64,000 nucleotides of DNA from Bacteroidota bacterium. GTDB lineage: Bacteria > Bacteroidota > Ignavibacteria > UBA10030 > UBA8401. How positions within the stretch are numbered: position 1 is the first letter of the stretch; the number at the start of each line of letters is the position of its first letter. Position numbers and translations under genes: made by a program. The notes beneath the pieces are model-generated. The model was given only the letters and a program-made list of their open reading frames with translations. It was not told where the DNA came from and searched no databases. Location: positions 23,736 to 87,735 of the forward strand of contig DATJPT010000014.1 of the NCBI GenBank assembly GCA_035506275.1. Direction: 5' to 3'. Below are positions 32,391-41,945 of this stretch, piece by piece.

Positions 32391-32500
32391 ACCAAATCAT
32401 AGATGCATTTGTACGCCAAATTTTAAGTGCAAAAGTACATGACAGGGACATCGAGACAAATACCTGATTCACGATATTGCGCTTGCCAATCTCATTCCTA
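32391..32500 (+). pseudogene. comM: decayed duplicate of a comM/yifB internal segment
   Basis: about 110 nt align with 41455-41580 (ggaaatt.c.gcaa...aagtacatg...acatcga), the start of the comM 3' fragment; frame broken by stops. Confidence 0.45.
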
Positions 32501-32937
32501 TTTTTTGGCGTCTATATGAACTGCCTTTTCAGAAAGACAATTCGGGGAATTAGATGCAACCATTCTTATAAATAATTCTCCATTTCATCAGAGAGTTCGG
32601 ATATATATACACGAAGGAGCGTATATATGGATTTTTGGAGTTGAATATGCTCTAAGGTGAAGTTTGCTTTGATCTAATCCTACAGAGGATATTCATATCA
32701 TCTAAGATTTTGGAAAAGTAATGGTAAAGTCCATATATAGTTCTTTTGATCCTAAAATGGTCCGAGCCGCTCTTTTGGCAAAACTGCATTAGGATTTTCA
32801 CAATGGAGGGCAGTGTAAATACCAATATCAATTCATGGGGCATAGGGGTATAATTGCCTAAATCTGTAACTAAACCATAGTCATAATGTATTTCACGTTC
32901 AATAATTATTATTAACTAAACTGTATGAGGAGAAAAA

Positions 32938-33219
32938 ATGGTTAACAAAATTGCAATTCAAGTGACCATTAACGGCGGGGCGGGCGGTCTTCACCTTAAT
33001 TTCAATATTGGCCTAGCCGGTGTCATAAATACCGACCATTCTCAGATACTCAACATTAATCTGAACAGTGGTCATTACACGATAATCGTTTCTGGATCGG
33101 CACCTTCGGGAGGCTCTGTTCAGGCAGTTTTTTCCGTTGTTGGAGGAGGAGTTTTGACAACCTCTCCCTTATATTCGAGTTCCTCTTTTGTGGACATGCT
33201 TTCCTTTGATGTTCCTTAA
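32938..33219 (+). CDS. small Gly/Ser-rich hypothetical protein
   Basis: 93-aa ORF directly upstream of a secreted protein gene; beta-rich composition. Confidence 0.35.
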   Translation: MVNKIAIQVTINGGAGGLHLNFNIGLAGVINTDHSQILNINLNSGHYTIIVSGSAPSGGSVQAVFSVVGGGVLTTSPLYSSSSFVDMLSFDVP

Positions 33220-33231
33220 GGAGGCTAGATC

Positions 33232-34428
33232 ATGAATAGTTTATATCTGATTTGTGCTTGTTTATTCGTAGTTCCGGATCTGACGATGTCCCAAGTGGGG
33301 CAATTTCAGGACTCATCAGCTGCGGCCAAAAATCCGATAGACTCTCTGATTTCGGTTTCCATTCAAAGGGCGAAAAATAGCTACAAAGTGAGTGCCAACT
33401 CGCAGCCGCAAAGCAGAAATTCCGAGACTTCCAACAAAATAGTCCAATTCTATGAGAGTGCCGTTAAGGGGAATTTTTTTTCTGGGGGGAACGGAAAGTA
33501 TGAATTTAAAGCGTCATTATACGGTCTCGAAGGTGTATTCCATGATTCTCTTTGGACAGTGGACACTGTCTACTTGCGTGGGGGGAACTATTGGACTAGA
33601 AATACCAACATTTCAGTAAATCTTTCCAGTGATCAAAATGGGGGAATTAATGGTCTCACTCCCACCATCAATTGCGCGATCATAAATAATAGAGATAGAA
33701 CAACAAAGAATTTTTTTGACGCTTTGGAACCGTATTGGACCAAAATTGACGGAGTTTTGCTCCCGGCAAGTTCGGTCCTCAATACAATGTCGAATCATGC
33801 AATGCGAGATAGTCTTCAAATTAATCTGAGGAATTGTTTACAACACAAGGATTTTTCGGGTCTTGATCGGTTTTGGTTAAGTTATATTGATGTCGATTCG
33901 TTAAAGAAAATCTTGAGTTCAATTAATGATTATTATGAAGATGTGGCTAAGTCTGTGGATCAAAGCTCGCTTTGGACAATTGGTGTTGGAGGGGGATTCC
34001 CAAAGGGGGCAGGGGATTCATTATTCCTGAACACTGAATATCATCATGGCCTGTTTGAGGGAAAGGACTTAGTGTTGAGTGGTACATTGGCTGTCGAGGA
34101 TACGGCAAATAACGGGTTATCGAAAATAAATAGAATCCAATGGCTCCTGTCAGCCGGAAGTGATTTTGTAATTTTGAGAGCGAATAAAGACTCCTCTTTG
34201 GTTGAAGGAAACTTTTCGCTTCAAGACGAGGGAATACCGATGGGATTGAAGAAAGGTGAGAACAATAATGAATTTGATCTGGCCCTGACCATTACTCCCT
34301 TAATATCGAAGAATCTTTACTTGCCTTTTACTATCAAATACGATCCGAGGATGCACAATTTTCTTGGATTTTTAGAATTGCAGTTTGATTTCAAACCCCC
34401 AAGTTCGAACGCTGTCGGTAGTGAGTAA
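33232..34428 (+). CDS. secreted hypothetical protein (398 aa)
   Basis: strong SD AAGGAGG; N-terminal signal peptide MNSLYLICACLFVVPDLTMSQ. Confidence 0.5.
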   Translation: MNSLYLICACLFVVPDLTMSQVGQFQDSSAAAKNPIDSLISVSIQRAKNSYKVSANSQPQSRNSETSNKIVQFYESAVKGNFFSGGNGKYEFKASLYGLEGVFHDSLWTVDTVYLRGGNYWTRNTNISVNLSSDQNGGINGLTPTINCAIINNRDRTTKNFFDALEPYWTKIDGVLLPASSVLNTMSNHAMRDSLQINLRNCLQHKDFSGLDRFWLSYIDVDSLKKILSSINDYYEDVAKSVDQSSLWTIGVGGGFPKGAGDSLFLNTEYHHGLFEGKDLVLSGTLAVEDTANNGLSKINRIQWLLSAGSDFVILRANKDSSLVEGNFSLQDEGIPMGLKKGENNNEFDLALTITPLISKNLYLPFTIKYDPRMHNFLGFLELQFDFKPPSSNAVGSE

Positions 34429-34746
34429 TGGAATAACAGTAATTACAAAAGGATCCAGGTGCGCAAAATGGAAAAGGTCAATATTTTTTTGGACAATGGA
34501 TTTTTTCTGCCTAGTGACCGAGCAAATAAATATTCCTGTGCACATTTGGCAAAAAGGGGGCCTTCGAGTTTGTTTAATGCGACGAATTCAACTGGTCGGT
34601 CATAGTGGTTTATCCGGGAAAACATGCAACGATGTGAGGGCGTGAGAATGTTGAGATGCGGATTATGTCCTTTTCATAGGAATATTCAATACTAGTTGCC
34701 GATACCTTTTTTGGGTAATGCGACGAGATAAAATAGGAGAAGGAGT

Positions 34747-40200: not shown

Positions 40201-40267
40201 CAAGACATTGCGTAGCTGGACATTATTGAAAATATTTCTGCAATGAATAACAAGGGACATAATTTAA

Positions 40268-40867
40268 ATGCAATCGCCGTGGAATAGCCTTGAATTAATT
40301 AAAATTCTCGTTGACGTACTTACACCGCTTCTTTTACTATTGCTCGGTATTTGGGTTAATCGCATAGCTAAGCGCATAGAAGCGACTCAGTGGACTAATC
40401 AAAAGGTTGTTGAAAAACGCATTATTGTCTATGACGAATTAGCGCCTCTGCTAAATGACATGTATTGCTATTATGAATTCGTTGGTAATTGGAAAGAACT
40501 GACGCCAGTACAAATCATTGAGACTAAGAGAAAGTTAGACGAAAAAGTCCACATCTATGCGCCTTTATTCTCGCCGTCATTCATATCTTCATTCAAGAAA
40601 TTTGAAGATTTGTGTTTTCAAACGTTCGTTGGTGCCGGGCTCGACGCAAAACTGCGGACCCCCATTAAAAGCTCCGATGGAGACCGGAGACAATCGTCCA
40701 AGGTCCACTGGGAGTCAAAATGGCAAACATTGTTTTCCAGCCCTTCAAATTGTTCTGATCCCATAGATATTCACGATGCTTATCAATCGCTGATGGGCAC
40801 TTTTTCAAAGGAGCTTGGGATTGGATTGAACACAAGTAAAAGCGCGATGACCAATAAGCAAGAATGA
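40268..40867 (+). CDS. hypothetical protein with N-terminal TM helix
   Basis: LLLLLLGIWV hydrophobic segment. Confidence 0.35.
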   Translation: MQSPWNSLELIKILVDVLTPLLLLLLGIWVNRIAKRIEATQWTNQKVVEKRIIVYDELAPLLNDMYCYYEFVGNWKELTPVQIIETKRKLDEKVHIYAPLFSPSFISSFKKFEDLCFQTFVGAGLDAKLRTPIKSSDGDRRQSSKVHWESKWQTLFSSPSNCSDPIDIHDAYQSLMGTFSKELGIGLNTSKSAMTNKQE

Positions 40868-40993
40868 GTTTGTGTGCTTGAATTGATGCGCAATTGTATG
40901 ACATCGAAAAAGCATATCAATCAATTTATTTATTGAATGAAGGGCGAGCGCGCGAGCCTTTTGTACAGAGCCGTGCCGGTCTTCTCAGAATAG

Positions 40994-41257
40994 TTAACGG
41001 TTTGATATTTCAGGGTAAGAAGGAATCTCCCTGAAGAAAGGCTCAAGCCGTGTTTTGAGTTGTCCTGTCGGAAAACTTTCATCTCTTTCCCACCGCCCCA
41101 GCGTTCCCGGATCGACGTTCAATTCAAGGGCCAACGCCCGCTGGCTCATTCCACGGACGTGCCTATACGCGACGATCTTCTGCCCGGTCGTTTGTCGGTG
41201 GAAGAGCGGAGGGGTGTAGCCGAGGAACTGCGTTATCCGGGGTATCAGGTGCACCAT
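40994..41257 (-). CDS. tandem-HTH regulator family, 41-kb copy (N-terminal HTH encoded in frame upstream to ~41454 but without a start codon)
   Basis: MVHLIPRITQFLGYT...; upstream in-frame ...GDHIKKQRLELGLLQREVAERLGVTESSVYDWEKHRTDP with no ATG/GTG/TTG. Confidence 0.5.
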   Translation of the reverse strand: MVHLIPRITQFLGYTPPLFHRQTTGQKIVAYRHVRGMSQRALALELNVDPGTLGRWERDESFPTGQLKTRLEPFFREIPSYPEISNR

Positions 41258-41460
41258 GGGATCCGTCCGGTGCTTCTCCCAATCGTAAACCGAGGATTCA
41301 GTGACCCCCAGTCGCTCCGCAACCTCCCTTTGGAGAAGCCCCAGCTCCAGCCGTTGCTTCTTGATGTGGTCTCCCCAGGTGGTAAGAGTTTTAGGGATCT
41401 TCGACGGTTTTTGGCCTTTAAGAACGATTTCGAGGCCATCCCGATTGGCAACGCATCTAT

Positions 41461-41945
41461 GTCCCTGCGGAAATTACGGCAATCCTCATCACGAGTGTAC
41501 TTGCACGCCGATGCAGATCCAGAAGTACATGGCGAAAATTTCAGGCCCGCTGCTCGACCGCATCGACATTCACATCGAGGTTCCAGCAGTGAAAGTCGCC
41601 GAGCTGGGCCAAAAGAAGCCGGGGGAGCCGTCTGACGCCGTCCGCGCCCGCGTCATCTGCGCCCGCGAGAGACAGGCAAAACGCTTTAAGAAAAGGCCCG
41701 GACTTTTTTCAAACGCAGACATGCAATCGAAGGAGATCCGGGAATTCTGTACCATAGATTCCGACGGGGAAGTGCTGTTGAAGATGGCAATGGCCAAACT
41801 AGGACTTTCAGCAAGGGCGTACGATCGAATACTTAAAGTAGCTCGAACGATTGCCGATTTAGGAGGTAGCGACGAGATCCGCCCCGAACACCTCGGCGAG
41901 GCGATTCAATACCGGAGCTTAGACAGAAATTTGTGGATGAATTGA
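41461..41945 (+). pseudogene. comM: 3' fragment of comM/yifB (Mg-chelatase-like competence ATPase); 5' two-thirds absent
   Basis: CPCGNYGNPHHECTCTPMQIQKYMAKISGPLLDRIDIHIEVP...ARERQAKRF...SARAYDRILKVARTIADL...HLGEAIQYRSLDR matches the ComM/YifB C-terminus; reading frame begins abruptly at the edge of the HTH-gene repeat. Confidence 0.65.

Follow-up and report, generated by a model that had tools for sequence, protein, structure and literature searches.

The product of comM (yifB) is a helicase needed for efficient natural transformation. Large serine recombinases (LSRs) that target this gene are already known, since Durrant et al. 2022 (PMC10083194) list the Mg-chelatase-like/comM (yifB) family as the target of 12.4% of the predicted site-specific LSRs and report an enrichment of competence genes. 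The comM/yifB elements concerned (PMC10083194; Mageeney et al. 2020, PMC7192596; phage WO, PMC9203015) integrate site-specifically within the coding sequence of comM and inactivate it, use a 2-nt crossover and partly symmetric att sites, and carry the LSR gene at one end. The only literature match for an attP within an integrase ORF is provided by the tyrosine "suicidal" integrases of the SSV type from archaeal viruses and plasmids, which Badel et al. 2020 (PMC7253208) describe as "so far restricted to archaea". Their integration leaves an int(N) stump at one end of the element and an int(C) stump at the other, neither of which is active any longer; such stumps accumulate, and excision via non-cognate stumps could yield hybrid genes. 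Besides, SCC at rlmH (Ccr; e.g. PMC11470126) and the Dehalococcoides ssrA islands (PMC3146451) illustrate serine-recombinase hotspots with tandem units, many of which lack a recombinase of their own, where defence or accessory cargo is bounded by short att-core repeats and the target gene stays intact. Finally, the AbaR/Tn6022 islands of Acinetobacter interrupt comM by means of a Tn7-like transposase and with a 5-bp target-site duplication, the resulting loss of ComM lowering natural transformation and thereby protecting the island (PMC11441513).

The window, i.e. the whole stretch of 64,000 nt analysed here, contains at position 41460 the right junction (attR) of foreign DNA put into comM by an LSR (Table 1). 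It very probably represents an LSR-made island whose integrase gene was split by integration and whose leftover 3' parts (int-C stumps) remain as a record of acquisition. The family shares with the known comM elements the inactivation of comM at a specific site, the 2-nt crossover, the partly symmetric att sites and, as seen in relatives, the terminal LSR gene, but differs in that attP lies within the LSR ORF, so that integration detaches a C-terminal double-HTH module, of which term searches of Durrant et al. 2022 and Mageeney et al. 2020 gave no mention. What is new here is the anatomy, namely an integrase gene that harbours the very attachment site at which integration severs it. In this respect, and in the accumulation of stumps, the family resembles the SSV-type integrases, although it involves a bacterial serine recombinase whose int-N half would keep its catalytic and DNA-binding domains. 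No bacterial serine integrase with attP in its own ORF was found in the literature, the coverage of which is incomplete, so that this is not proof of novelty. As in SCC and the ssrA islands, tandem units are delimited by att-derived sequence, with four int-C stumps of which one has a fossil attR, but here comM is broken and the unit bounds are integrase-gene stumps, one with a comM remnant as well. The AbaR/Tn6022 islands share the target gene and likely the outcome; their insertion site in the gene is unrelated, and a serine recombinase acting at one dinucleotide takes here the place of the transposase.

Table 1. Features of the window, in order of position (int-C, 3' part of the split LSR gene; P-type, element side of an att site).
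Feature	Position	Strand	Description
Low-GC accessory DNA	1..41459		45% GC versus 51% right of the junction
Element-family backbone block	12893..18945	+	HTH_36 protein, 167-aa protein, RuvC-like protein, 185-aa protein, 1010-aa TrwB/HerA-like ATPase (Pfam)
int-C stump c21	21323..~21800	-	Frameshifted, junction decayed; 87% identity to c41 over 363 nt (blastn)
Cargo c21-c32	21801..31907	+	Metallophosphatase, AraC-type regulator, two T9SS-sorted secreted proteins (Pfam)
int-C stump c32	31908..32367	-	ORF intact, open across the junction to 32390; 2 x HTH_3; internal ATG at 32315
Fossil attR, P-type half-site	32345..32367		ATGGCA-AAA-GGCAACGCA-GGGA; 1-nt deletion between both motifs
Decayed comM remnant	32368..32444	+	About codons 352-377, with stops and an indel (nhmmer, alignments)
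Cargo c32-c41	32458..40993	+	Nine same-strand ORFs without family assignment, broken by remnant c38
int-C remnant c38	38476..38540	-	Last ~62 nt left; 84% identity to c32, E 1.9e-13
int-C stump c41	40994..41464	-	Linker and 2 x HTH_3 (Pfam); 3' part of the LSR gene
attR, element-side (P-type) half-site	41436..41459		From comparison with L004, L005 and L031 junctions and attP palindromes of fused ORFs
Crossover dinucleotide TG	41460..41461		First two bases of the comM Cys352 codon
Host comM 3' part	41460..41945	+	Codons 352-512 and natural stop; ORF intact, GC host-like

The right-hand junction is defined by several comparisons. The ORF at 41301-41945 covers Mg_chelatase positions 155-206/207 and the full Mg_chelatase_C domain (Pfam), a 513-aa ComM query finds its sole match in the window with aa 338-512 at 41424-41936 (tblastn), and a DNA profile of the comM 3' part, derived from 79 further loci, matches 41455-41932 with an E value of 3.6e-116 (nhmmer). 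At the protein level, the fragment is 94% identical to P0058. The truncation of comM, as claimed by the original prediction, is thereby confirmed; the homology to the intact comM of locus L097 (79% DNA identity) sets in exactly at 41460, 1 nt from the predicted 41461, and the missing N-terminal part amounts to 351 aa instead of ~340 aa. L097, which represents the empty site, carries comM in the same synteny (nuoGHI-comM-142aa-NtrC-HK...), a right flank that was present in none of the first 80 loci. Its match to the attL locus L090 ends at nt 11055 and its match to the window begins at nt 11054, so that the attL and attR homologies overlap by 2 nt, TG. This alignment with an uninterrupted comM, which had been proposed as a check, pins the crossover to one dinucleotide and places the predicted LSR strand exchange at the single TG within the Cys352 codon. 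The target-site duplication also sought at the comM junctions is not there, only the 2-nt TG being common to both. All attL junctions that were parsed read GGCAACRCA-N4-CA-NGGRTTCAT. In the element-side half-site of attR, positions 41447-41455 are occupied by the proximal motif GGCAACGCA, and since the distal ATGGCA is not at consensus spacing, this half-site looks degenerate.

The organisation of the LSR becomes apparent from related loci, whose hosts are uncultured Bacteroidota/Ignavibacteria-like bacteria of soil and sediment. Among 80 metagenomic LSR loci, 52 have an attL in comM, six contain fused LSR-HTH ORFs and one shows the opposite orientation. In addition, truncation affects 13 of the 120 best-matching ComM N-terminal homologues, of which 11 end in ...CAMNP, and in these truncated contexts an antisense LSR of 499-542 aa directly follows codon 351. 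The comM-adjoining LSRs share 65-72% mutual identity, and in the attL loci comM is truncated at codon 351 without any replacement 3' end. In the six fused loci, the LSR and the double HTH form one ORF of 632-655 aa with Resolvase, Recombinase, Zn_ribbon_recom (in L106) and two HTH domains, while no Phage_integrase domain was detected in the fused ORFs (Pfam). In this family, a single ORF of ~630-655 aa thus encodes the catalytic resolvase domain, the recombinase domain, a zinc ribbon, a linker and a pair of XRE-type HTH domains. Within the linker of the fused ORF, attP forms a near-perfect palindrome, ATGGCA-N4-GGCAACGCA-N4-CA-N4-TGCGTTGCC-N4-TGCCAT, which was found in six or seven loci. The att sites are dyad-symmetric except for the central dinucleotide, which is not palindromic and determines the orientation; in L169, this dinucleotide is the complementary one and the element sits in comM the other way round.

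Because attP lies within the LSR ORF, integration splits the integrase gene. It places int-N, at the element's far end, beside codon 351 of comM, and int-C (linker and double HTH) beside codon 352. Split LSR forms are present at comM, and the reading frames of int-N and int-C agree in two independent configurations. Since the cut removes only the accessory HTH module, int-N would keep its catalytic and DNA-binding domains; the int-N of L090 is predicted to retain Resolvase and Recombinase, with Zn_ribbon at an E value of 6e-4 (Pfam). In principle, the fused ORFs might stem from junctions inside tandem arrays instead of from free circles, and no matched attL/attR pair of one element was recovered.

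The same architecture explains the HTH-family gene that had been seen to abut both comM pieces. The stumps c41 and c32 can be aligned over their full length with the last ~140 aa of the fused LSR-HTH proteins, c41 with aa ~494-632 (42-45% identity, E 1e-29 to 1e-35) and c32 with aa 488-633 (E 1e-27 to 1e-32). The gene is therefore the detached 3' part of an integrase gene and not an independent regulator. Its position next to the comM pieces stands, whereas its number does not, the window holding four copies (c21, c32, c38 and c41) instead of two. In c41, the reading frame continues uninterrupted through the junction, and the first canonical start codon is that of a Met at 41257; an initial reading of c41 as a frameshifted pseudogene was accordingly revised to that of the 3' part of a split gene, open from the junction onward. 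At c21, no comM remnant is detectable with the comM 3' profile (nhmmer). Beyond the window, the HTH module has more than 3,700 cluster representatives at E <= 1e-3, many of the top matches being stand-alone ORFs that start at the junction, and the split LSR would account for the widespread "orphan XRE/HTH genes" beside truncated comM.

A second, decayed comM piece had been proposed at 32391-32500. Its existence is supported; its place and size are not, since it comprises ~77-90 nt at 32368-32457. By blastn, 32355-32417 is 71% identical to 41447-41509 (E 0.004-0.005), but as this stretch is partly element DNA, an independent test was made with the comM profile. In the whole window, this profile matches, apart from the host comM 3' part, only 32368-32444, on the same strand and at profile positions 7-81, with an E value of 1.3e-4; a further nhmmer search gave 2.4e-4. 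The remnant at 32.4 kb is therefore real, its similarity being significant on formal alignment, whereas a lack of significance had been named by the original prediction as a possible refutation. It forms the B' side of a fossil attR, with its TG at 32368-32369, and as c32 keeps this crossover TG together with ~77 nt of decayed comM, it was formerly located at a comM attR. The window thus supports the proposed island insertion in comM through a site-specific right-hand junction and one or more earlier junctions of this type that have since decayed. A parallel inner comM scar occurs in L004 (E 2e-6). A defined, ~125-nt comM-like element end common to L004 and the window was considered and rejected, given that the remnants measure ~125 and ~77 nt, respectively, and that nothing is conserved past them.

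To the left, the low-GC DNA extends at least 19.6 kb beyond the window, as seen in the left-flank loci L087 and L095, its GC content ranging from 39 to 53% per kb with most values at 41-45%, and the two highest-GC kb of the left region correspond to the R-M genes at the start of the window. The backbone block, which adjoins c21, has homologous counterparts with conserved gene order in many LSR loci (L106, L128, L129, L165, L174, L177 and others), the TrwB/HerA-like ATPase being 44-48% identical to its LSR-locus homologues across ~1000 aa. GC and gene content thus support the suggestion that all of the DNA on this side is cargo of the island, without a left boundary having been found. The first 351 comM codons, whose location had been called for, are absent from the window and the 19.6 kb upstream, i.e. 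within 61 kb of the junction, and a comM 5' DNA profile detects no remnants there either. Similarly, a cognate int-N has no match anywhere in the window or in L095, only 3' stumps of the integrase gene being present in this genome, and the left boundary is consequently drawn from relatives only. The sole LSR nearby, of 613 aa and just left of the window, is unrelated (18-20% identity). The truncated ComM P0070 belongs to another MAG (HTR versus HTY), no truncated ComM occurs on the 213,822-nt contig, and neither P0049 nor a 199-aa cargo protein provided new context. An integron model for the HTH/comM repeats was rejected as well, the attC-like repeats at 2.8-9 kb being unrelated to the junctions. 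With no cognate int-N within 61 kb, a c41 without start codon and two degenerate surviving P half-sites, the island is probably immobile now.

As to the formation of the array, canonical LSR chemistry, which joins attP with attB only, does not by itself give tandem attR-type scars with comM remnants. The four stumps would testify to a minimum of three or four separate events in which related elements were acquired, in line with the two or more nested or tandem insertions originally proposed. Most likely, the inner stumps came into this genome as passengers within a composite island, because decay has affected the inner remnant but not the 3' end of the host's comM. Multi-stump arrays similar to that of the window, with other cargo, are found in L004, L031 and L162. 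The latter two observations also speak against a local duplication, in which the units of HTH gene and comM piece would be segmental copies of one attR region with cargo inserted between them afterwards, even though the copies are direct repeats of the same orientation, 9.1 kb apart, with no int-N or attL remnants between them. Besides, dS between the stumps reaches 0.2-0.68 but dN/dS is just 0.21-0.26, which indicates that they diverged under purifying selection and that most of this divergence was gained in working genes and not by neutral decay of local copies, so that serial acquisition is favoured. The family backbone block beside c21, the inner scar of L004 and the lower GC content of the island point the same way. 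As weak additional evidence, the c32 remnant scores 31 against the comM of L001, from another lineage, and 24 against the window's own. Taking these data into account, local duplication is distinctly improbable. A stepwise accretion, with each unit integrated at this genome's own comM after regeneration of attB (e.g. by recombination restoring comM) and no pre-assembled composite, is unlikely too but deserves serious consideration in the light of L005, where a comM reading through the att site precedes cargo, int-C, TG and another full comM 3' copy (76% identity between both copies), a state that would present a fresh attB. However, such accretion predicts the rightmost comM 3' copy to be the oldest, yet it alone is intact, and the first L005 copy extends past the contig edge.

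Regarding the enzyme, displaced 3' fragments of the target gene are typical of tyrosine-integrase islands, and phage 21 and e14 at icd are examples of islands that bring a replacement 3' end. Under such a model, the HTH gene at the island's edge would simply code for a regulator or antitoxin of the usual XRE type. It was prompted by the two full comM 3' copies of L005, which show this arrangement, and was dropped on the basis of the attL loci, which do not, and which display an LSR and a 2-nt crossover. No tyrosine integrase was found in any junction locus, the LSR abuts comM codon 351 in 52 loci, six loci have the HTH and the LSR in one uninterrupted ORF, and the junctions share just 2 nt, making this model very improbable. 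Even less credence, close to none, can be given to a Tn7-like (AbaR-type) transposon, although AbaR islands of Acinetobacter classically insert into comM (PMC11441513, PMC7508600): the large ORFs contain no TnsA/B/C-type domains, a target-site duplication is lacking, and the junction has the palindrome and the 2-nt crossover of a serine-recombinase site. Where the original prediction had suggested looking for an integrase or Tn7-like tnsABC genes, the integrating enzyme is thus an LSR, neither a tyrosine integrase nor a Tn7-like transposase.

With the LSR-made island as the preferred reading, a broader one, tentative but quite possible, is that of a widespread bacterial family of self-splitting LSRs with an in-ORF attP, an RDF-independent switch and stumps that serve as integration record and source of hybrid genes, which would be the first serine counterpart of the archaeal "suicidal" integrases. 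The full-length LSR-HTH protein would be producible only from the excised form, and one may speculate from this that integrase splitting is a built-in switch, offering an RDF-independent control of directionality or expression that might also serve engineered serine integrases. LSR mining from integrated copies may, in addition, annotate truncated enzymes. The orphaned int-C stumps, for their part, provide a simple marker to count and date integration scars and, if this reading is true, would form a readable history of integrations, reusable for hybrid integrase genes. Finally, by breaking comM, these elements may guard against their own removal by incoming DNA.

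In the ORF at 41301-41945 Pfam recognises the last stretch of the Mg_chelatase domain (positions 155-206 of a 207-position profile) together with a full Mg_chelatase_C domain, and a 513-aa ComM from a complete genome finds its sole match in the window at 41424-41936 (aa 338-512). The first ~350 comM codons are therefore missing from the window, and the truncation of comM (yifB) announced by the original prediction stands. The second, decayed copy proposed near 32.4 kb is also significant by formal comparison: blastn aligns 32355-32417 with 41447-41509 (71% identity, E about 0.004). 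As part of this stretch is element DNA, the comM 3' ends of 79 other loci were combined into an independent DNA profile, whose sole matches in the window are 41455-41932 (E 3.6e-116) and 32368-32444 (E 1.3e-4). This remnant of about 77 nt carries stops and an indel, the host comM 3' part being defect-free, and each of the two pieces is indeed abutted by an HTH gene, in the form of a minus-strand XRE-type double-HTH ORF. Besides, when the first 351 aa of a related ComM serve as query, 13 of the 120 top-ranking homologues are truncated, 11 of them ending in ...CAMNP, and in three loci from other lineages (L004, L005 and L031) comM is cut at the same codon with the same HTH gene adjoining the cut.

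The closest full-length relative of the comM fragment, P0058 (94% identity over the C-terminal part), is encoded in an uninterrupted locus, L097 (nuoG-nuoH-nuoI-comM-142aa-NtrC-HK-...), with which the right flank of the window is syntenic. Homology to the window comM part starts at nt 11054 of this locus and homology to L090, a comM 5' junction locus, ends at nt 11055, so that the two junctions have exactly two bases in common, TG, and alignment with an uninterrupted comM places the target site at this one dinucleotide, the start of the Cys352 codon within the NPCPCG motif. In six other full-length ComM proteins (P0054, P0065-P0068 and P0072), identity to P0058 is 90-92% after codon 351 and 85-89% before it, a pattern that an exchange of alleles at the att site could explain. 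The 7.7-kb block that immediately follows the comM stop is absent from L097 and constitutes a second variable segment next to comM; it encodes a transposase of the IS200-like/RAYT type, flanked by REP-like repeats, as well as a carboxylesterase, a GH5 cellulase and KatG. In L085, from a related strain, the RAYT is followed by other genes.

Coordinates of the features in the window and at related loci
Feature	Position	Strand	Remark
Integron-like repeats	2834-3016, 4658-4806, 6239-6334, 7212-7394, 8155-8338, 8855-9007		examples; array 2800-9000
1010-aa TrwB/HerA-like ATPase	15913-18945		backbone block
Stump c21	21323-~21800	-	self-comparison; frameshifted
Hairpin	31863-31903		41 nt, near-perfect
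Stump c32	31908-32390	-	self-comparison; intact
Stump c38	38476-38540	-	self-comparison; last ~62 nt only
Stump c41	40994-41464	-	self-comparison; no canonical start codon
Variable block after comM	41946-49658		7.7 kb
IS200-like/RAYT transposase	42115-42660		in 7.7-kb block
REP-like repeats	41959-41991, 42039-42071, 42687-42718		flanking RAYT
Flank syntenic with L097	49659 onward
Unrelated 613-aa LSR	L087 4079-5920		3.5-5.3 kb left of window position 1
Reversed insertion	L169 6560-6975		core co-directional with comM 3' part
Non-comM neighbour	L176 ~3835-3900		resembles tRNA T-arm

Truncated comM could be placed on contigs in three loci (L088, L090 and L093), in all of which an antisense large serine recombinase (LSR) of 499-542 aa directly follows comM codon 351; the LSR is in turn followed by a TraG/TrwB-like protein, a PDDEXK nuclease, DUF3276 and DUF932, or by different cargo. 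These LSRs share 65-72% mutual identity, and a metagenome scan with their alignment gave 80 loci: the LSR adjoins antisense comM codons ~351-356 in 52, forms one ORF with the HTH in six and lies in comM in the opposite orientation in one, while the contig stops no more than 200 nt past the LSR in 11 and the situation is other or undetermined in ten. The integrase to be looked for at the far end of the island is thus found beside comM codon 351 in relatives, but neither the window nor the adjoining 19.6 kb on its left contains a cognate core. One family member, in L169, is inserted in the reversed orientation and its central dinucleotide, read in LSR orientation, is TG, in keeping with the rule by which polarity depends on this dinucleotide. 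A few other members have non-comM neighbours (L120, L153, L172-L174, L176 and L179; the L176 sequence, GGATTCGAACC, resembles a tRNA T-arm), which suggests that the family occasionally switches target.

The origin of the HTH genes emerges from six loci (L106, L121, L141, L155, L177 and L182) whose LSR and double HTH are encoded together in a single unbroken ORF (632-655 aa). Pfam detects Resolvase, Recombinase and two HTH domains in all three fused ORFs submitted (L106, L121 and L177), and Zn_ribbon_recom in L106. The linker of the fused ORFs encodes ...ATGQRN-x-x-P-ALPFCH... and holds a near-perfect palindrome, ATGGCA-N4-GGCAACGCA-N4-CA-N4-TGCGTTGCC-N4-TGCCAT, whose left half is the sequence found beside comM 5' parts and whose right half is that found beside comM 3' parts; this palindrome is the putative attP, located within the integrase coding sequence. 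Reading frames of core and tail are compatible in two independent configurations: the L088/L090 cores (...CC/C A/TG...) match the L004/L005 tails starting A/TG GTT GCG (MVALPFCH), and the L093 core (CCT /CA/G) matches the window tails (xxx /CA/T xxx TGC GTT GCC). Over their full length, the ORFs of c32 and c41 can be aligned with fused-protein residues ~488-633 (41-45% identity, E 1e-27 to 1e-35), and residues 1-490 have no match in the window or the 19.6 kb upstream. The supposed separate HTH-family gene is thus int-C, the 3' portion that integration severed from the integrase gene of the island itself, which explains why the c41 frame is open from the junction yet lacks a start codon. These comparisons of sequence lay out the crossover point, the predicted anatomy of attP, attL and attR, and the apparent splitting of the integrase ORF.

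The window holds four such int-C stumps, so that the nested or tandem insertions of the original prediction are supported as serial events, their number being four stumps rather than two. Among the three alignable stumps, dS is 0.57-0.68 for c32 against c21 or c41 and 0.20 for c21 against c41, with dN/dS of 0.21-0.26; they diverged mostly as working genes, which favours separate acquisitions and speaks against local duplication as the source of the array. The c32 junction, which retains a P half-site, the TG and decayed comM, is a fossil attR. The P half-site is degenerate in both survivors, c32 having a 1-nt deletion and c41 lacking the distal motif at consensus spacing. An inner scar parallel to c32 exists in L004 (E 2e-6), and additional stumps in L031 and L162. 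The hairpin between c32 and a convergent T9SS protease gene is probably a bidirectional terminator.

As to how the array formed, we favour the entry into this genome of a composite island with older scars already aboard, because the host comM 3' part is defect-free, the inner remnant is decayed, and this remnant scores slightly better against comM of another lineage (L001) than against the window comM, the last point weighing little. Stepwise accretion after restoration of comM is possible, and the state of L005 would permit it: there, comM reads through the att site, and cargo, int-C and TG then lead to a second comM 3' copy.

The block beside c21 comprises a 167-aa protein, a RuvC-like protein, a 185-aa protein and the 1010-aa ATPase; homologous blocks with the same gene order occur in many LSR loci, the fused loci L106 and L177 among them, which identifies the c21 unit as a true right-hand portion of a family member. 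Each of units II-IV consists of nothing but cargo and a stump. The ATPase also matches the PADLOC model mad8 (E 2.6e-22) and may be a transfer/coupling or a defence protein. The DNA to the left of 41460 has a GC content of 45% and that to the right 51%; in the leftward extension, 19.6 kb obtained from contigs identical to the window, GC is mostly 41-45% (39-53% per kb), with peaks over the R-M genes at the window start. Since the comM 5' part was found neither in the window nor, even as a decayed remnant, in this extension, the island is at least 61 kb long. The extension encodes BubE, a ThiF-type E1 and a Multi_ubiq protein, a LexA-like peptidase, a 613-aa LSR unrelated to the comM-targeting family (18-20% identity), sugar-modification genes, a PIN-TPR-GreABC protein, a GHKL ATPase and a Dcm-Vsr fusion. 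The unrelated LSR neighbours the LexA-like S24 peptidase, the Multi_ubiq/ThiF-E1/BubE ubiquitin-like system and the XamI restriction-modification pair opening the window; it may represent a distinct element inserted within the island. The integron-like cassette array has at least six repeats, starting GCCTAAC (RYYYAAC) and ending GGTTAGG (GTTRRRY), which alternate with short minus-strand ORFs without assigned function; neither the window nor the 19.6-kb extension showed an integron integrase.

Of the LSRs predicted to be site-specific, 12.4% use Mg-chelatase-like/comM genes as target, and LSR targets in general show an enrichment of competence genes (PMC10083194). Since comM-targeting LSRs are so well documented, the proposed island insertion at comM is both correct and of a known kind, now refined to a serine recombinase, a single TG crossover and four stumps. 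What is added is an apparently self-splitting serine integrase whose tails had been read as HTH genes. An attP inside the integrase ORF is shared with archaeal SSV-type integrases, said to be archaea-restricted (PMC7253208), which are however tyrosine enzymes; in the literature searched, no serine or bacterial case was found. SCC composite islands (PMC11470126) and Dehalococcoides ssrA islands (PMC3146451) resemble the present island in their tandem, partly recombinase-less units with defence-like cargo, whereas here the target gene is destroyed.

The full-length LSR-HTH protein would work on attP x attB and, once integrated, the core would retain the catalytic and DNA-binding domains while losing the HTH module, which might be required for one direction of recombination or act as a repressor. 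In some relatives an ATG lies exactly at the junction of this module, and many stand-alone homologues begin there. Tandem double-HTH matches, 6-23 per protein, also occur in P0200 (4162 aa), P0206, P0210, P0229, P0244 and P0331. Finally, by analogy, loss of ComM is expected to lower transformation, which would favour retention of the island, as demonstrated for the AbaR islands of Acinetobacter (PMC11441513).
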